Under the pieces are notes generated by a model that saw nothing but the letters and a program-made list of their open reading frames with translations, had not been told where the DNA came from and did no database searches. The translations under genes were made by a program, and so were the position numbers. Below are positions 29,894-37,570 of a stretch of 43,703 nucleotides of DNA, one piece after another. Source of the DNA: Bacteroidia bacterium (GTDB taxonomy: Bacteria; Bacteroidota; Bacteroidia; JAYUJA01); the NCBI GenBank assembly GCA_043765495.1, contig JAYUJA010000009.1, forward strand, positions 1 to 43,703. The letters are read 5' to 3'. The first letter of the stretch is position 1. Each line of letters starts with the position of its first letter.

Positions 29894-30727
29894 ATGGCAG
29901 TAAAAATCAGATTGGCAAGACATGGTAAAAAGAGAAAACCTTTTTATCATATCGTAGTAGCCGATGGTCGTGCACCTCGTAATGGTAAATACATTGAGAA
30001 ATTGGGTATCTATAACCCAGTTACCAATCCTGCGACCATTGAATTAGACTTTGACAGAGCATCGTACTGGATGGGCAATGGAGCTATCCCAACCGATACC
30101 TGTAATGCAATATTACGTTACAAAGGCGTACTATACAAAAAACATTTGGACGGTGGTGTTCGTAAAGGAGCATTAACCCAAGAACAAGCAGACGCAAAAT
30201 TAGAAGCTTGGTTAAGTGAAAAAGCTGCTAAAATAGACAGCAAAATCACGAAATTAGCTGACAATAAAGATGCTGACAAAAAAGCAAAACTAGAAGCAGA
30301 AATAAAAGTTAAAGCAGCTGTTGCAGCAAAATTAGCTCTTAAAAATGCTCCAGAAGTAGTAGAAGTAGTCGAAGCAGAAGCACCAGTAGCGGAAGTAGTA
30401 GCAGAAGCACCAGTAGCGGAAGTAGTAGCAGAAGCACCAGTAGCGGAAGTAGTAGCAGAAGCACCAGCAATTCAATTAGTAATAGTAGAAGGAATCGGGC
30501 CAAAAGTACAAGAGTTATTACACGAAAGTGGGATAGTAACAATCTCTGACCTAGCAAGTGCACCAGTAGAAAAACTGAAAGAAGTACTAGACGCAAAAGG
30601 TGGAATATATGCAGCGATGAACCCAGAAACTTGGGCACAACAAGCAGCATTAGCAAGAGATGGTAAAATGGACGAATTGAAAAAATGGCAAGATGAATTA
30701 GATGGCGGAAAAGTCACTAACGAATAA
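29894..30727 (+). CDS. rpsP: 30S ribosomal protein S16 with Ala/Glu/Val/Pro repeat linker and C-terminal HhH (DUF4332-like) domain
   Basis: MAVKIRLARHGKK..PFY.IVVADGRAPR.GKYIE; C-terminal VEGIGPK...L...GI....DLA...ETW.QQA.LA..G...EL..WQDELDGG. Confidence 0.95.
   Translation: MAVKIRLARHGKKRKPFYHIVVADGRAPRNGKYIEKLGIYNPVTNPATIELDFDRASYWMGNGAIPTDTCNAILRYKGVLYKKHLDGGVRKGALTQEQADAKLEAWLSEKAAKIDSKITKLADNKDADKKAKLEAEIKVKAAVAAKLALKNAPEVVEVVEAEAPVAEVVAEAPVAEVVAEAPVAEVVAEAPAIQLVIVEGIGPKVQELLHESGIVTISDLASAPVEKLKEVLDAKGGIYAAMNPETWAQQAALARDGKMDELKKWQDELDGGKVTNE
30374..30467 (+). repeat. 27-bp in-frame tandem repeat, about 3.5 copies (AEAPVAEVV)
   Basis: GCAGAAGCACCAGTAGCGGAAGTAGTA x3 exact copies plus a partial copy. 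Confidence 0.95.
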
Positions 30728-30993: not shown

Positions 30994-31001
30994 TAATTTT
31001 G
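30994..31001 (+). promoter_or_regulatory. Bacteroidota -7 promoter element inside the cassette
   Basis: TAATTTTG (TAnnTTTG) 29 nt upstream of ATG 31031, spacing similar to other genes in the window. Confidence 0.55.
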
Positions 31002-31030
31002 CGTTACTACTTCTAACATAACCAATACCA

Positions 31031-31663
31031 ATGACTAACTTACTAAAAAGCTATGCCGAAACAGGCGATGTAGCAAATACACAGGTAGGAGAAGATTTTT
31101 TGAGTCCAATATTGAATTTCCAACAAAAAGCCAAAGCTACTTGGAAAACAATTACATTTAAGGCATTATGGGAAAATTATCCAAGCAGTACAGTGGAGCA
31201 TTTGGACACAAATAATAATGATATTTATAAAAACCATTGTGCCATTCATTTGAGTGAATCTCTTTTTCAAAGTGGTATAGAATTTATTGGTGATTGTAGT
31301 AAATATTCTTGTCCTAATGGTAGAAGTACCCATATTTTACTTGCAACAAGCCTATCAGTTAAAATTAATGTACAAACAAATGGTATAAAAAATATACTAC
31401 GAAAAGATCTTACTGGTGCAACGTATGAAGCCTATGTAAAAGATAAAACAGGGATAATTTATTTTGAAAACTACTGGAAAAGACCGCAGGAAACAGATGA
31501 AAAAAGAAGTGGTGATCATATAGATTTGTGGAATAAAAATGAACTGGCAAGTAATGGTGTGCTCAAAACTTGGTTAAGACAAGCCTTTCCATCAGTTGCG
31601 GAAAGATTGGGTTCATCTGATTTAACAAAATCTAAAAACGTAATATTTTGGGAAATAAAATAA
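31031..31663 (+). CDS. Tae4-family peptidoglycan amidase effector with shared 21-aa N-terminal leader
   Basis: TF..LW.NYP, NHCAI.LS (catalytic Cys), K.GIIYF.NYW, GDHIDLWN (catalytic His) and V.FWEI motifs; no Sec signal. Confidence 0.8.
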   Translation: MTNLLKSYAETGDVANTQVGEDFLSPILNFQQKAKATWKTITFKALWENYPSSTVEHLDTNNNDIYKNHCAIHLSESLFQSGIEFIGDCSKYSCPNGRSTHILLATSLSVKINVQTNGIKNILRKDLTGATYEAYVKDKTGIIYFENYWKRPQETDEKRSGDHIDLWNKNELASNGVLKTWLRQAFPSVAERLGSSDLTKSKNVIFWEIK

Positions 31664-31926
31664 TAACAAACCTGTTCTTCTTACTTATCTCAATGGTAAG
31701 TAGCATATTGATAGCCTTTGGCATTCTTACTTTAAGAAATGAGAATAAAATCGTTTCATTAATTTTCAATAAAGTTTTAAAATTGAAAAGAACTGCTCAT
31801 TATCAAGGAGAAAGTTTAGCAAATGAAATTTGGGACATTGGGTTATTTTATTTGTTACCTCTTGTTTTCATAATAGTATCCATAATAATTTACTTTTTAA
31901 GAAGATATTTCAAGAATAAGATGTAA
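31648..31926 (+). CDS. Small two-TM membrane protein, candidate immunity protein
   Basis: Overlaps the amidase stop (TTG start; alternative ATG at 31693); two hydrophobic segments; very AT-rich. Confidence 0.55.
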   Translation: MGNKIITNLFFLLISMVSSILIAFGILTLRNENKIVSLIFNKVLKLKRTAHYQGESLANEIWDIGLFYLLPLVFIIVSIIIYFLRRYFKNKM

Positions 31927-31976
31927 ATTACAATTAGTATTTGAGTACCATTTTTCAACCTTAAAACAACAATAGT

Positions 31977-33737
31977 ATGCCCAAAGATTTAAACACCCTC
32001 GTCCTAGAACGCCGTAGCGACCTTACCAACTGTGCTGGTGGCAAGCCCCTCATTACCTTTGGAGGTGGAGATGCCCCTGTACTGGATTATCGTATGCCAC
32101 AATCTACCTCGTTTGACACGTATAGCCCTGTAAAATTAGTTGTAAATGAAAAATGTTGGAGTGCCAAAGCCCTAAAAGTGTACCCGAATGCCTATGCCAA
32201 CCTTACACCATCACAAATAAGTGCAGTAGTAGCACAAAATAGTTCGCAAGTAGTAGATGCTAAACAACCCATTACCAACCTACTGCGTGCAGTAGCTCAT
32301 AACTTGCAAGCAATGGACGATTCCGTGCTTCGTCAAGCTAAAGATAAAGCAGATACCAAACCAAGCCCTACACCCGAAGCTACACCCGATACCGTGTTCC
32401 AGTTGTTCAAAAATGGATATACCGCCCGTTTCTTAAATAAGTTTAATGGCAAAGAACAAACCTTGCTTTTAGAACAACGCCCTACACAAGCAAACCCTAC
32501 ATTATTCGTATTACACAAGTACAAAACCAAATCTTTTTTAGGAAATTATGGTGCAGGGCAAACCATCAGTACATTTAGCCTTTTGCCAGGGGAGAAAACC
32601 ACCATTATAATTAAATCATTTAAAGAAATTTCAGAAGTAAAAACCTCGTCCAGTAATATTGTAGATAGTTTTAGCAAAGAAAGTGCCGATGAAATGGAGA
32701 ATTTGTTAGAGGCGGAAACTTCTACCAATCAATCCAATAGCAACACAGGTACACTCACCACCAACGAAGGCAAAACACGCACCGCAGAAGCCCATTTTGA
32801 TGTAAATGCAAGTTTTAAAATTGCGGGACAAGGTGGCAGTGCCAGTGCAGGCGGTAGCATCAATGGTACAAACTCATCAAACACTACCAATACCGTAAGC
32901 ACGTCTGCGACTTCTGCCCAAAATGCAAAAGATTTGCACAAAGCACTCGAAAAACACGTAAATAAAAGCAATGCCAACCGTACCCATACCATACAGCAAA
33001 GCGACACTACAAGCAGTAAAGAAACGTACGAGAACACCACCACCCGAGAAATAGTAAACCCCAACATAGGACGAGTACTTAATTTTGTATTCCGAAACCT
33101 AAACCAAGGCTATAAAGTGCTTACAAGTTTGGAAGAGATAAAAATAGGATTTACCAACGGACAACCCGAAAGCGAAATAATGGTAGATATAAGTCAGCTT
33201 GATTTTTTGCTAAATGAAGTCCTAAAAAACGATGCAGAAGGCGAAAAGTGCAAACAAACTTTACGGGATTACATTTTTTGCCAATACGGTACAGTTACAG
33301 ATTATAATGGTGTAGAACGCCCTTTTATCCAGCCTCATACCGAGGATAAACCTTGTGGAAATATTTCTTATTTCAGAAAAATACCCAAACTGCAATACTT
33401 TTACAACACCGTTACAGACGAAACAATAACCAAAGAACAAGCTGACGATAAAGGCGTAGCTGGCATATTAAAATTAGCTATGAATGGTGTGATACTCAAT
33501 GCCGATGAATTTGTACTAAAAACCGATGCCGTAATCATTGATGCCCTTTTGGGACACGCTTCTGCGTTAGACTGTTTTAATGCCAATGTTCAAGAAGAAA
33601 AGAAAAATGAATTACTACTCAACAACCTAAAACAAGAACTTGCTTTTGAGACATTGAAGCAAATAGCAGACCCCATAAAACGAGCCGAAATGTATGCCGA
33701 AATGTTTAACCCTCGCCAAACAATCAGCAAGCAATAG
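31977..33737 (+). CDS. Uncharacterised 586-aa protein with Ser/Thr-rich amphipathic core; candidate carrier or pore-forming translocase
   Basis: Long clean ORF. FLGNYGAG.T..TFSLLPGEKT and TTREI.N.N.GR.LNFVFR blocks flank a Ser/Thr/Asn-rich stretch; helical C-terminus; no signal peptide. Function is inferred only. Confidence 0.6.
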   Translation: MPKDLNTLVLERRSDLTNCAGGKPLITFGGGDAPVLDYRMPQSTSFDTYSPVKLVVNEKCWSAKALKVYPNAYANLTPSQISAVVAQNSSQVVDAKQPITNLLRAVAHNLQAMDDSVLRQAKDKADTKPSPTPEATPDTVFQLFKNGYTARFLNKFNGKEQTLLLEQRPTQANPTLFVLHKYKTKSFLGNYGAGQTISTFSLLPGEKTTIIIKSFKEISEVKTSSSNIVDSFSKESADEMENLLEAETSTNQSNSNTGTLTTNEGKTRTAEAHFDVNASFKIAGQGGSASAGGSINGTNSSNTTNTVSTSATSAQNAKDLHKALEKHVNKSNANRTHTIQQSDTTSSKETYENTTTREIVNPNIGRVLNFVFRNLNQGYKVLTSLEEIKIGFTNGQPESEIMVDISQLDFLLNEVLKNDAEGEKCKQTLRDYIFCQYGTVTDYNGVERPFIQPHTEDKPCGNISYFRKIPKLQYFYNTVTDETITKEQADDKGVAGILKLAMNGVILNADEFVLKTDAVIIDALLGHASALDCFNANVQEEKKNELLLNNLKQELAFETLKQIADPIKRAEMYAEMFNPRQTISKQ

Positions 33738-33739
33738 CT

Positions 33740-34555
33740 ATGGGAAATCTAATAAAAAGCTACGCCGAAACTGGCGATGTAGCAGATACGCAGGTGGGGG
33801 AAACTACCATTGCAGATACGAATAGAGTTTTGAATTTCTTTGCAAAAAATAAAGATACAATTCGCTTTGAAAATAAAACTATAAAATGGGATTTCGTACT
33901 CACTGATGCTATGATAAAAAATGGTATTGAAGGAAAATATGATAACGATAGAAATTGTCCTATGTGCTGCTTAAAAGCATTTGCTAGCAACTTATTAGTG
34001 TTATACCCTCATTTGAAAAAATCAGATATTAAGACAAATGATATTATGTCAACTGCTTTAAGCACTCTAAAAAAAGATGAACTCGTTTCTTCTAAAATCA
34101 AAGTTCCACCATTTTACCAAGGAAAGAGATTAACTTCTAAATCTCATTCCGAAGTTGCTTTGGAGGATATTGAGAGCAAAATAAGTGATAGACTTTTAGA
34201 ACTAACACCAGATAAATCTATTTGTGTATTTGCAGTAGGTATAGCGGCTGAATATCATTCAACTTTAATTATAGTTTCTAAAGATACAGAGTATGAAGTA
34301 GATTTAAGCGAGAATGGAACTGAACAAATTTATAGCACAACTAATGATAATCCTTTATTTGTATTCGTAGAAGATAATGGAGGATCTCGTTATTTCAATG
34401 CAAGCGACCTTGATAATAAAATCTCTGAATTTATCAATGGTGCATATGAATATTACAGAGGAGAGAAAGAAATCCAAGGGGCAAGAGGTGTTAATATAAA
34501 TATAGATTATAATTTAGATGCAAATGTTTATCAACTTTTTTATCCAAATCAATAG
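33740..34555 (+). CDS. Putative effector with shared 21-aa leader; possible papain-like Cys-His-acidic hydrolase
   Basis: Leader is 18/21 identical to that of 31031. CPMCC, VGIAAEYHSTLI and FVFVED could supply a catalytic triad. Starts 2 nt after the upstream stop. Confidence 0.55.
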   Translation: MGNLIKSYAETGDVADTQVGETTIADTNRVLNFFAKNKDTIRFENKTIKWDFVLTDAMIKNGIEGKYDNDRNCPMCCLKAFASNLLVLYPHLKKSDIKTNDIMSTALSTLKKDELVSSKIKVPPFYQGKRLTSKSHSEVALEDIESKISDRLLELTPDKSICVFAVGIAAEYHSTLIIVSKDTEYEVDLSENGTEQIYSTTNDNPLFVFVEDNGGSRYFNASDLDNKISEFINGAYEYYRGEKEIQGARGVNINIDYNLDANVYQLFYPNQ

Positions 34556-34558
34556 CCA

Positions 34559-35089
34559 ATGAAGAATAATTTAAAACTATATTTTGTGATTTCTATTTGT
34601 TTTTTATTTACTAATAAATGCTTATGTCAGATAGATTCATTAAATAAAAGTATCAAAAAGGAGTTTGTAAATAGTAAAATTATAAAGAAGAACATTAGTT
34701 TTTTTAAATCTAAATTAGATATTTGTTTCAAGAATCAAATATCTAATTACACAGCAGTAACTTATTATATTTTTAAAAAAATAAGGAGACAAAACGTAGT
34801 ATCTGTACTGACTTTTGATAATGACAGTATTGCAAATCTACAGTTTAATATTTTAGAAAAAGAAGCTAATTTTGTTAGACAAACTCGTAGAGAATTGTTC
34901 CAAGAAATTTGTTATCTACCATTTGGAGGTAATCAGTTTTATTTTGTAACTGTAAAAAGTAATAAAGTATATTTATTTGGCGACAATGGTGGTTATAATT
35001 ATTCATTTGATTTTGAAAATTACAATTTTCAAAAAGCAATTGAACGCCAAAATCCTGAATTATTTCTACTTGTAAAATGCCTAAACTAA
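34559..35089 (+). CDS. Exported protein, candidate immunity protein
   Basis: Signal-peptide-like MKNNLKLYFVISICFLFTNKCLCQ; 3 nt after the upstream stop; very AT-rich. Confidence 0.55.
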   Translation: MKNNLKLYFVISICFLFTNKCLCQIDSLNKSIKKEFVNSKIIKKNISFFKSKLDICFKNQISNYTAVTYYIFKKIRRQNVVSVLTFDNDSIANLQFNILEKEANFVRQTRRELFQEICYLPFGGNQFYFVTVKSNKVYLFGDNGGYNYSFDFENYNFQKAIERQNPELFLLVKCLN

Positions 35090-35107
35090 ACCTTTTTCAC
35101 TGCCACC

Positions 35108-35229
35108 AACATAGTATTTACGAAAAAGTGGCGGAGGGAAGTTATTGGTCTTTACTACTGTACCCAGCAGTGGTACTAAACCTGTGCTTTGTGCTTTCTA
35201 TCCCACTTCTTCGTAAATACTTGGACGTT
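35108..35229 (+). repeat. 122-bp palindromic element, copy 2 (attC-like recombination site)
   Basis: Direct repeat of 30830-30951; starts 18 nt after the last cassette stop codon. Confidence 0.85.
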
Positions 35230-35404
35230 GTATACAAATAGCTTTTTGATTTCCTTTTCTTGTGAAACACTCACTAGCTGTTTCGGGCGACTTCTTTTAG
35301 TTGCATCTATTATTTAATCCACTGCATAAAATAAAAGTATTAAAAAATGTTTTTTTCTATATTTGCACGCAATTAATAACTATTTTCTATAATAAATAAA
35401 AACA

Positions 35405-36016: not shown

Positions 36017-37570
36017 ATGAAAAAAAATTTATTCATTTGCCTTTTGTTAGTACTACAACAAGGCAGCCTATACGCACAGAACTGGAGTAGTAATATAGCC
36101 AATATTGTATATACTAAATGTACACAATGCCATAGAACAGGAAATATAGCACCTTTTGCACTAGAAAATTACCAACAAACCTATAATATGCGGTTTGCGA
36201 TACAGACTTCTATCAATGCAAAACGTATGCCTCCTTATCCTCCTGACCTTACCTACCAACGATACACACACGAAAGAGCCTTAACCAACAACCAACTACA
36301 AAGCCTAAACGACTGGATAAACGCTGGCGCACCCTCTGGTGATCTTGCACAAGCCCCAACTATGCCTAGCTATGAAAATAGTACAGGGCTAGGAATGCCA
36401 GATGTAACCCTACAACTGCCTACCTACACTTCTACCGCAGACTCTACTGATGTGTACAGAGTATTAGTAGTACCCACTGGTTTTACAGAAACAAAAAAAA
36501 TAAAAGCCATCGAAATAGTAGCAGGAAATTCGGAAATAGTACACCACGTATTAGTTTTTGAAGATGTAAATGGCGTGTGTAAAAGCAAAGATGAAGAAGA
36601 CCTAGAAGTAGGGTATAGAGCTACTGATGGAATGGTAAACAACCTATCTGCCGTATTCGTGGCAGGGTGGGCACCAGGAAGTAACGCACTGATAATGCCA
36701 ACTGGCATGTCGCAAAGGATACACAGTGGAGCAGACTTAGCCGTACAAATACATTTTCCAAGAGGCACTATTGGGCAGTCCGACAACTCTAAAATAAACA
36801 TATACTTCGCCGAAGATACCGACGAAAGAGAAGTATTATTCCAGCCGTTACTCATACATACCGCCCCTATACTCACCAATGGGCCATTATTCATACCAGC
36901 TAACGAAACCCGAGATTTCCATGAGCAATTCATAGTAGAACCGTTCACCGATTATAGTGTACTAGCTATCATGCCACACATGCACATGGTAGGCAGGACG
37001 ATGGAGATATATGCCCGCCCTTTCTTATCAAACTCTACTATACCATTAATAAAAATAGACAATTGGGATTTTAGTTGGCAAGGAATATACACTTTCCGAC
37101 AGCCTATAAAACTAGAAAGAGCTACTTCCATACACGCTTATGCACACTACGATAATACTACCAACAACCCGAATAATCCAAACAATCCGCCCCGTGATGT
37201 AAGAGATGGTGAAGCTACTACCGATGAGATGATGCTTACTTTTGTAGCATTTACAAAATACGAATCAGGAGATGAAAATATATGGCTAGAAGATACTACT
37301 ACTCTTTTTGCAAAAATAGAAGAAAGTAGCCTTCCTACATCTGCTATAAAACTATATCCGAACCCCGCTAATAATCTAGTACACCTACAACAAAAAGAAG
37401 ATGCCCTAGCTACAATTTCTATCTACGATGTACTGGGCAAACTAGTAAAACAACAAACTACCAATACAGCCGAAACAAACATAGATATTTCTACTTTTGC
37501 AAAAGGCGTGTATACGCTTCAATTCGTAAATAGTAAAGGCAATAAGAATATAAAATTCGTAAAAGAATAA
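36017..37570 (+). CDS. Secreted copper type II monooxygenase-like protein with N-terminal CxxCH motif and T9SS sorting domain
   Basis: CTQCH...IAPF.L, MPPYP, VHHVL, QIHF, PHMH, WDFSWQ..Y and DEM motifs; C-terminal LYPNPA...IYDVLGK...KGVY...KFVKE. Confidence 0.8.
   Translation: MKKNLFICLLLVLQQGSLYAQNWSSNIANIVYTKCTQCHRTGNIAPFALENYQQTYNMRFAIQTSINAKRMPPYPPDLTYQRYTHERALTNNQLQSLNDWINAGAPSGDLAQAPTMPSYENSTGLGMPDVTLQLPTYTSTADSTDVYRVLVVPTGFTETKKIKAIEIVAGNSEIVHHVLVFEDVNGVCKSKDEEDLEVGYRATDGMVNNLSAVFVAGWAPGSNALIMPTGMSQRIHSGADLAVQIHFPRGTIGQSDNSKINIYFAEDTDEREVLFQPLLIHTAPILTNGPLFIPANETRDFHEQFIVEPFTDYSVLAIMPHMHMVGRTMEIYARPFLSNSTIPLIKIDNWDFSWQGIYTFRQPIKLERATSIHAYAHYDNTTNNPNNPNNPPRDVRDGEATTDEMMLTFVAFTKYESGDENIWLEDTTTLFAKIEESSLPTSAIKLYPNPANNLVHLQQKEDALATISIYDVLGKLVKQQTTNTAETNIDISTFAKGVYTLQFVNSKGNKNIKFVKE

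Follow-up and report, generated by a model that had tools for sequence, protein, structure and literature searches.

Polymorphic toxin systems (Rhs, CdiA and type VI islands; PMC3482391) join a conserved delivery part to a hypervariable toxin with an adjacent immunity gene, and in these systems a remnant of that conserved part persists in tandem and orphan cassettes. A similar organization is found in related loci of many genomes and in a cluster of five genes, all on the same strand between rpsP (an S16 homologue) and frr, on contig JAYUJA010000009.1 of a Bacteroidia bacterium, which was analysed over its whole stretch of 43,703 nucleotides (hereafter, the window). The cluster comprises the gene for P0001, a protein of 586 amino acids (aa) that we refer to as the carrier, and, on either side of it, a gene for a toxin that begins with a short leader (P0121 and P0123) followed by a gene for a candidate immunity protein (P0122 and P0124). 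We consider it very probable that P0001 is the conserved partner in a polymorphic toxin–immunity locus, as these loci show a conserved part, a variable toxin, an adjacent immunity gene, and multiple or orphan cassettes. Unlike the described polymorphic systems, no toxin is fused to the C-terminus of the carrier, here or in related loci; the two are separate polypeptides with the leader of ~20–40 residues as their only link, the carrier has no described trafficking domain and the recognised toxins are cell-wall enzymes only. A term search of the available text of the 2012 survey of polymorphic toxins (PMC3482391) gave no aerolysin, pore-forming, binary-toxin or protective-antigen carrier.

Three further kinds of toxin invite comparison. 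As described in PMC6572795, the pore-forming module of the aerolysin family is Ser/Thr-rich and contains an insertion loop that refolds to an amphipathic hairpin (in epsilon toxin, a 26-residue insertion loop and a 79-residue hairpin domain). Compared with such toxins of the beta-pore-forming kind (beta-PFTs; that is, aerolysin, epsilon toxin/ETX-MTX2, Clostridium perfringens enterotoxin, Toxin_10/Tpp, Cry78 and monalysin), the carrier is similar in its predicted elongated beta-sheet with full-length strands, its Ser/Thr-rich module with an insertion loop, its variable putative binding region and its C-terminal element, which perhaps needs removal. It differs in having no profile match or significant superposition (Z ≤ 4.7), in its size, its 138-residue insertion with two conserved helices, its N-terminal motif and C-terminal helical hairpin, and in that it lacks a signal peptide and is genetically linked to enzyme toxins encoded apart from it and to immunity genes, with probably bacterial targets. 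With binary AB toxins (anthrax protective antigen type; Bt Cry23/Cry37 and Tpp pairs), the locus shares a pore-former-like gene beside separate partners, together with a putative N-terminal element of the partner that could engage the B component; unlike in those toxins, P0001 has neither a sequence match nor a protective-antigen-type structure among the matches listed, and the partners are antibacterial enzymes that are polymorphic and come with immunity genes. Finally, colicin-like bacteriocins likewise lack a signal and have a disordered element at the N-terminus, a cytotoxic domain at the C-terminus and, directly downstream, an immunity gene, but the toxins considered here are short (~170–420 aa) and without receptor-binding and long translocation domains, roles that would fall to the separate carrier. 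The carrier belongs to a family without any annotation, and the system built on it is a variant of kinds already known (that is, of aerolysin-like pore formers, binary toxins and polymorphic toxin systems). Full-text searches of the literature, which leave subscription journals mostly uncovered, found neither the family nor any polymorphic toxin system linked to a pore former described in print.

A conserved carrier with leader-bearing partners

The P0001 family is the only gene widely shared by the 79 related loci (81 family ORF, that is, open reading frame, ends) with which the window was compared, and the next largest clusters of neighbours occur in at most 10 loci. A same-strand ORF follows within 250 bases of 69 of the 81 ends, with a stop-to-start gap of 0–100 bases in most loci and of 2 bases in the window. 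Signal-like N-termini are found in only 2 of these 69 first-downstream ORFs versus 41 of 56 second-downstream ORFs, and it is this second position that P0124, a candidate periplasmic immunity protein for the second toxin, occupies in the window.

The two toxins of the window, P0121 and P0123, resemble each other at their N-termini only (24 of 42 residues identical, E 2e-10), the remainder of the proteins being unrelated, and the identity of their DNA starts at the start codon. The leader-bearing enzymes to which the first-pass annotation had alluded do therefore exist. In the 1.92-Mb assembly (79% complete) the leader occurs only twice, both times in this locus; the exact leader is absent from the 79 related loci, in which the sole fuzzy match was spurious. 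P0121, a Tae4-type peptidoglycan amidase, has no signal peptide (N-terminal hydrophobicity 0.72, not signal-like). P0123 matched neither Pfam nor, by sequence, the PDB. The ESM-Atlas clusters closest to it are ones with Peptidase_C58 (YopT-type) or Toxin_15 (scores 0.91–0.94), and 23 of the nearest 30 came from the Peptidase_C58-carrying set (0.93–0.94), which is a lead only; judged by these neighbours, P0123 is probably a papain-like (YopT/C58-like) cysteine peptidase of a new antibacterial toxin family. P0122 is, from its position, a candidate immunity protein for toxin 1, with a release factor as the alternative, and its match to a PHROG holin was non-significant (E 0.71). BLAST of the toxins and immunity proteins of the window against the ORFs of the 79 loci gave no match at E ≤ 1e-3.

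Elsewhere, recognisable leader motifs open at least 35 of 58 downstream proteins (FxNPW..W in 19, xxYWxxxW..TDTS in 9, NxWGxxVLDSKD in 5 and the NTxVL type, to which the leader of the window aligns, in 2), and many of the remaining 23 begin with a Trp-containing acidic stretch. Loci with several toxins (L005, L012, L021, L038 and L074, as well as the window) share one leader among different toxin domains. Among 65 downstream proteins with a length of 100 aa or more, a Pfam scan recognised ten amidases or peptidases above the cut-off (Tae4 in eight, Amidase_3 in one and Peptidase_M15_3 in one), one YkuD domain below it, DUF6402 in two and evident housekeeping genes in two, with no match for 50. 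Families of nucleases, deaminases or ADP-ribosyltransferases were not recognised by Pfam in this set, and the recognised spectrum of cargo fits a delivery that ends at the periplasm.

Orphan cassettes in related loci are preceded by remnants of the carrier. These derive from its C-terminus in L036 (8997–9188, corresponding to P0001 residues 524–572, E 7e-8) and, twice, in L038 (1155–1310 and 2642–2803), and from its N-terminus in L021 (2268–2456 and 9063–9302, before extra toxin–immunity cassettes); they are recombination scars like those of the orphan modules of rhs and cdiA. In the window, the sequence upstream of P0121 is not homologous to the 3′ end of the carrier gene, and the upstream cassette is therefore not an obvious orphan with a carrier remnant. 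The GC content of the toxin and immunity genes (0.23–0.33 within 31000–35250) is below that of the carrier gene (0.37–0.45) and of the flanking housekeeping genes, which is consistent with cassettes acquired by recombination.

The carrier itself matches 0 Pfam-A families (hmmscan, E ≤ 0.01), 0 NCBIfam families and no PDB sequence; a 60-member profile gave two chance-level helical matches among PDB sequences, and PHROGs gave a single 29-residue match to a family of unknown function. Its relatives are nonetheless numerous: 336 proteins in a word-indexed search, which without exception lack a Pfam domain and, where the source names them, are 'hypothetical'; 950 clusters (50% identity) at E ≤ 1e-3, 380 of them at E ≤ 1e-30, in an exhaustive search; and 280 confirmed matches in GTDB contigs (one genome per species). 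Most of the latter are from Bacteroidota (Chitinophagales, Sphingobacteriales, Flavobacteriales, Bacteroidales, Cytophagales and Saprospiraceae), and others are from Alphaproteobacteria (Kiloniella, Reyranella and Rhodospirillales), Gammaproteobacteria and Acidobacteriota. The family spans soil, water, rumen and gut Bacteroidota and other phyla, with a patchy distribution in the class of the window, in which 2 of 30 other genomes searched have it. The 17 longest members contain no fused toxin domain recognisable by Pfam. Outside bacteria, the carrier has a structural homologue over its full length in a 642-aa protein of Yasminevirus sp. GU-2018 (BFVD A0A5K0U6Q4; Foldseek E 4e-10, 14% identity), which probably reflects gene transfer between bacteria and an amoeba virus.

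Predicted anatomy, hairpin and fold of the carrier

AlphaFold2 models of the whole carrier (mean pLDDT 72.5) and of its core (residues 165–586, from 124 sequences; mean pLDDT 76.2) share one layout, with a poorly defined N-terminus (pLDDT low for residues 1–40). The N-terminus contains a conserved motif (residues 19–62), in which C19, G31, L36, Y38, P41, Q42 and F61 are at least 90% conserved and the mean frequency of the commonest residue is 0.56, versus 0.30 for residues 63–165. By this measure the long strands and the surroundings of the insertion helices are the most conserved (0.56–0.71), and residues 63–165 and 439–503, both candidate specificity regions, the least (0.30); residues 63–165 are also a candidate receptor-binding part, and many homologues align only from about residue 135–170 onwards. 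Invariant positions in an alignment of 60 sequences (A1) number 20 and include Y191, G192, G194, P204 and E206 in the long beta-hairpin at 175–214, which carries the motifs YLGxYGAG and FSLLPGE; R357, N361, N363, L368, N369 and R373, the last three within RVLNFVFR (residues 366–373; 33072–33095), the invariant motif of core strand 368–393; and G526, A530, L531 and D532 at the start of the C-terminal helical hairpin. Strands 175–202, 368–393 and 505–525 are 21–28 residues long with pLDDT mostly 80–96, and the molecule is accordingly predicted to be elongated and mainly beta, with strands that traverse it as in aerolysin-type beta-PFTs. Between the second and third strands (207–214 and 353–360) the models place the insertion, of which the stretch between the two conserved helices (234–254 and 309–334) is low-confidence Ser/Thr/Asn/Gly sequence.

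Much of what the first-pass annotation had read from the letters recurs in this layout. The strings it quoted are all present in P0001 (TKPSPTPEATP at residue 127, FLGNYGAG at 187, FSLLPGE at 200, TRTAEAHFDVNASFKIAGQGGSASAGGSINGT at 267 and TTREIVNPNIGRVLNFVFR at 355); the Ser/Thr/Asn-rich region stands out in composition (Ser, Thr and Asn make up 43% of residues 218–352 versus 22% of 1–217 and 18% of 353–586, and 68% of the tracts 248–269 and 292–316); and the helical C-terminus is present in both models as helices 529–561 and 566–577, a possible latch or autoinhibitory element.

The alternating-polarity segment with a Gly turn, likewise part of that annotation, is not a product of chance. 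In an alignment of 136 members over the region between the FSLLPGE and RVLNFxFR anchors, columns 270–291 alternate strictly between hydrophobic (V/I/L/F/A) and small or polar (G/S/N/K) residues, forming two arms (270–280 and 283–291) around a G/K turn at 281 with Ser/Thr tracts on both sides. Independently, the period-2 hydrophobicity of the 60 sequences of A1 is highest of the whole protein at 271–281 (2.29) and second highest at 283–293 (1.88), followed by residues 47–57 (1.86). In its alternation, its 68% tracts and its placement, the segment has the features of the amphipathic insertion loop of aerolysin-type beta-PFTs; whether residues 270–291 form a pore is, in our judgement, evenly balanced.

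Comparison of folds gave matches of a consistent kind and none that is significant. The top weak Foldseek rows for the whole model are Cry35Ab1 and Tpp80Aa1. In an exhaustive VIA-align search, most rows, including the highest-scoring (Z 5.0–5.6), match only the C-terminal helices, and these helical-hairpin matches were judged uninformative. For the core model, all beta-core rows listed are aerolysin-type pore formers (Tpp80Aa1, Z 4.7, 92 aligned residues, root-mean-square deviation (r.m.s.d.) 4.7; lamprey immune protein 5zu4, Z 4.5; Cry78Aa, Z 4.4 and 4.2; a Bombina aerolysin-like protein, Z 4.3), and for the whole model two of the same proteins are listed as beta-core rows, Tpp80Aa1 at Z 4.5 and the lamprey protein at Z 4.4. 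A second-look search returned 14 core-spanning rows, of which 12 are aerolysin-type (Z 3.0–4.7; among them C. perfringens enterotoxin at 3.9, monalysin at 3.1, aerolysin at 3.1, and the Bacillus thuringiensis protein 2d42 and Cry23Aa1, both of which we take to have the aerolysin-type fold) and two are proteasome subunits. The nearest named ESM-Atlas clusters of P0001 are Aerolysin and ETX_MTX2 (0.76–0.77, rated by the tool as a lead only). All these scores lie under the mark from which the tools recommend relying on a match. Membership of P0001 in the aerolysin family is unproven, and the consistent kind of these model-based matches suggests rather that it may work like an aerolysin-type protein. 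No protective antigen, C2-II or Ib chain is among the matches listed in the fold searches (such absence is no exclusion), and the fold of protective antigen or another binary-toxin B component, which the first-pass annotation had also put forward, receives no pointer from them.

A proposed binary antibacterial weapon and its rivals

The first-pass annotation had proposed an oligomeric pore or translocase for the leader-bearing enzymes, to be checked by Foldseek and AlphaFold comparison with pore-forming toxin structures. This reading draws support from the conserved, Ser/Thr-flanked amphipathic hairpin at the place of the aerolysin-type insertion loop, from the genetic coupling to leader-bearing toxins across many genomes and from structural neighbours and ESM-Atlas clusters that, where beta-rich, are of the aerolysin/ETX-MTX2/Toxin_10 type only; the structural side of it fell short, with no significant match (best Z 4.7; Foldseek E > 0.01) and no Pfam pore-former model. 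Given the hairpin module, the linked, leader-tagged and signal-less toxins, the periplasm-acting cargo, the signal-peptide-bearing immunity proteins and the lack of a carrier immunity gene, we envision a binary weapon that opens the outer membrane of a rival. Specifically, the carrier, as an elongated beta-sheet protein with the amphipathic hairpin within its Ser/Thr-rich insertion, would oligomerise on a rival Gram-negative cell in the manner of an aerolysin-type pore-forming module, and the insertion would refold into a beta-barrel through the outer membrane of that cell. The signal-less partner toxins (that is, the Tae4 amidase and C58-like peptidase here, and other peptidoglycan hydrolases elsewhere) would be coupled to the carrier by their short N-terminal leader and so gain access to the target periplasm, while immunity proteins with signal peptides would shield siblings. 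New toxin–immunity cassettes may be exchanged by recombination, with the 3′ end of the carrier gene and the leader as handles, and exit from the producer is assumed to occur by lysis or by an unlinked export route. In the related loci no dedicated immunity gene for the carrier is conserved, which would be tolerable if the pore lies in the outer membrane. We infer oligomerisation, pore formation, leader–carrier binding, the targeted membrane and the exit from the producer, and although we favour the mechanism as a whole (a binary, polymorphic antibacterial toxin, with P0001 as its pore-forming B component, by which cell-wall enzymes enter the periplasm of rivals), we do so tentatively, at a little below an even chance.

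Several observations weigh against this mechanism. The pore-former models Aerolysin (PF01117), ETX_MTX2 (PF03318) and Toxin_10 of Pfam do not match P0001; Foldseek searches of the PDB with the whole and core models gave nothing at E ≤ 0.001 (E ≥ 0.02); and the VIA-align Z-scores of the pore formers are all below 5 with an r.m.s.d. of 4.7–8 Å, which, according to the tool, may reflect a common arrangement only. The insertion, with 138 residues and two predicted helices, is far larger than that of epsilon toxin. In single sequences the alternation of the hairpin is weak (13% of the 136 members beat composition-matched shuffles at the 5% level) and, because this per-sequence score is barely above shuffles, the signal is one of positional conservation and not of each sequence alone. 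The 50 of 65 downstream proteins without a recognised domain could hide toxins that act in the cytoplasm. No export or lysis gene is conserved near the family in the 79 loci, and neither carrier nor toxins have an export signal. Furthermore, ten mostly proteobacterial loci have a conserved gene immediately upstream, for a ~367-aa protein, instead of a polymorphic cassette. Examples of this gene are found at L010:4844–5944, L013:2954–4060 and L024:4801–5961 and in L032, L050 and L053; its product has no Pfam domain and an N-terminus (..DTPVLEKGALETTAV..) that resembles the NTxVLE leader type. This proteobacterial variant may be a fixed-cargo version of the system.

On the coupling of leader and carrier, prediction of a complex between the two (carrier A1 with leader A3) scored 0.12 and 0.00, where the mark is 0.32, and, run without controls, speaks neither for nor against binding. 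Residues 29–34 of P0123 (33824–33841) read RVLNFF, with which ILNF in the toxin 1 leader is aligned. The echo of the invariant RVLNFVFR of the carrier hints at possible strand mimicry or complementation. Alternatively, judging from one leader class of related loci, Tol or Ton proteins of the target might be what the leader engages, instead of, or besides, the carrier.

This last possibility leads to a more specific variant, which we regard as unlikely, in which the system would be an autonomous, contact-independent binary bacteriocin, or 'split colicin': an aerolysin-like B protein would build its own barrel in the outer membrane of the target, the disordered N-terminal leader of a small polymorphic A toxin would thread through it, and Tol or Ton, as an energised system of the periplasm, would pull the enzyme in. 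The TolB box of colicin E9 is, according to PMC2821528, 32-GASDGSGWSSENNPW-46, anchored by W46. Of the leader classes in related loci, the most frequent has the motif FxNPW(S/G)xxNSxW, in many cases with a Gly-rich sequence after it (for example, FDNPWSAENSEW in L067 and FKNPWG.G in L038, L039 and L018), and its toxins include those at L067:7866–8480, L069:7892–8560, L074:1884–2687, L075:2040–3293 and L038:1313–1837, among others. This class resembles the box of colicin E9 also in its setting, both lying in the disordered N-termini of signal-less toxins followed by immunity genes. The class may represent an epitope that binds Tol; the resemblance, a short one, could equally be fortuitous, and the Trp motif is absent from the leader of the window. 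If true, the variant would represent a new, machine-free import of proteins across the Gram-negative outer membrane in Bacteroidota, Proteobacteria and Acidobacteriota.

Colicin lysis proteins and other lysis-based systems release signal-less enzymes, and the carrier could instead act in its own producer, its hairpin entering the inner membrane from the cytoplasm in a gasdermin- or holin-like manner and freeing the enzymes. That carrier and toxins lack signal peptides, that no export genes are conserved nearby and that the amphipathic hairpin is conserved would all agree with such a release pore, for which the C-terminal helical hairpin could be an inhibitory latch. A bacterial gasdermin low in the Foldseek list (E 1.5) points in the same direction, but this match is not significant and no activating protease is conserved in the loci. 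Moreover, a release pore leaves unexplained how peptidoglycan hydrolases would cross the outer membrane of a rival and why a toxin leader matched to the locus would be needed; we therefore give it only a small chance.

Similarly improbable, in our estimation, is that the carrier serves as an adaptor or structural carrier for a separate machine (type VI, extracellular contractile injection or unknown), with the leader as a loading signal and the hairpin without a role in membranes. Tae4 is a classical type VI cargo family, and the order of conserved gene, cargo and immunity gene, together with the orphan cassettes, resembles vgrG or hcp islands. Against this, of 20 family-bearing genomes only 4, all proteobacterial, gave a match to the type VI sheath family VipB (PF05943), by a model that may miss Bacteroidota sheaths, and VipB was not found in the genome of the window itself (79% complete; searched without a Bacteroidota positive control). 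No gene of a secretion machine is conserved in the 79 loci, no VgrG, Hcp, PAAR or known-adaptor fold is among the matches listed, and the recognised cargo acts in the periplasm only, whereas type VI cargo includes many nucleases.

Less likely still, the carrier might be a stand-alone pore-forming bacteriocin or cytolysin, and the neighbouring cassettes independent of it, sharing an integration hotspot and a release signal. Although the hairpin, the weak aerolysin-type neighbours and a conservation far above that of the adjacent genes would suit such a protein, the very tight linkage (2 bases in the window), the carrier remnants that accompany orphan toxins, the lack of another delivery domain in the toxins and that of an immunity gene dedicated to the carrier all argue against it. 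A capsid-like shell, nanocompartment or filament scaffold that packages leader-tagged enzymes, an alternative raised in the first-pass annotation, would account for a large, probably oligomeric protein and for a short tag common to unrelated enzymes, as in encapsulins, whose cargo is targeted by such a terminal tag; yet it is very improbable, given that searches of PDB and viral structures gave no HK97, encapsulin or other capsid fold (nor, in the phage and virus set, a portal or tail fold; the uncharacterised giant-virus homologue was the only match there), that PHROGs offered only the short match noted above, that a membrane-type amphipathic hairpin and Ser/Thr tracts would have no role in a shell and that signal-peptide immunity genes point to extracellular attack.

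Should the binary weapon proposed here prove correct, a large and wholly unannotated family would be the delivery half of an unrecognised interbacterial weapon composed of a pore former and exchangeable cell-wall enzymes, without the need for a secretion machine. It would add a branch with bacterial targets to the aerolysin-like pore formers, account for many 'orphan' Tae4-type genes far from type VI loci and provide a simple model for the passage of proteins across the outer membrane, and the portable short leader would flag new families of toxins and immunity proteins among the partners without a known domain.

Features of the window and neighbouring genes

Table 1. Positions of the cluster genes, of the predicted parts of the carrier and of associated elements in the window
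Feature	Positions	Strand	Basis or remark
P0121, 210 aa, leader-bearing Tae4-type peptidoglycan amidase (toxin 1)	31031..31663	+	Pfam Tae4 E 2.1e-17, residues 66-207
Toxin 1 leader, ~39 aa, MTNLLKSYAETGDVANTQVGE...ILNF	31031..31147	+	identity to P0123 N-terminus
P0122, 92 aa, two hydrophobic segments	31648..31926	+	translation; N-terminus hydrophobicity 2.62
P0001, 586 aa, carrier, single ORF	31977..33737	+	table 11 translation
Conserved N-terminal motif of carrier, residues 19-62	32031..32162	+	consensus SCxxxEPFIKLGxGxAPxLNYNLPQST
Variable region, residues 63-165, with Pro/Thr linker 127-137 inside	32163..32471	+	conservation 0.30
Long beta-hairpin, residues 175-214 (pre-insertion strands)	32499..32618	+	strands 175-202 and 207-214 in model
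138-residue insertion, residues 215-352	32619..33032	+	helix 234-254, Ser/Thr/Asn tracts, hairpin, helix 309-334
Conserved amphipathic beta-hairpin, residues 270-291	32784..32849	+	predicted membrane-inserting element
Beta core, residues 353-528	33033..33560	+	strands 353-360, 368-393 and 505-525; small, variable beta domain at residues 439-503
C-terminal helical hairpin, residues 529-577	33561..33707	+	helices 529-561 and 566-577; starts at conserved GxxALDCFN
P0123, 271 aa, second leader-bearing toxin	33740..34555	+	shared leader; ATG 2 bases past carrier stop
P0124, 176 aa, signal-peptide-like N-terminus	34559..35089	+	translation; hydrophobicity 2.41
Terminator-like stem-loop past last cluster gene	35287..35304	+	consensus match only

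A promoter scan of the window was uninformative, as it used the sigma-70 consensus, which is probably unsuited to this phylum. Upstream of the cluster, the S16 gene (29894–30727) encodes a protein of 277 aa with the S16 domain at residues 9–67 and a long C-terminal extension, in which residues ~198–260 match DUF4332 and a helix-hairpin-helix. Downstream, 36017–37570 encodes a 517-aa protein with a type IX secretion C-terminal sorting domain and weak matches (E 0.0011 and 0.0072) to both halves of copper type II ascorbate-dependent monooxygenase; the protein may be a secreted PHM/DBH-like copper enzyme.

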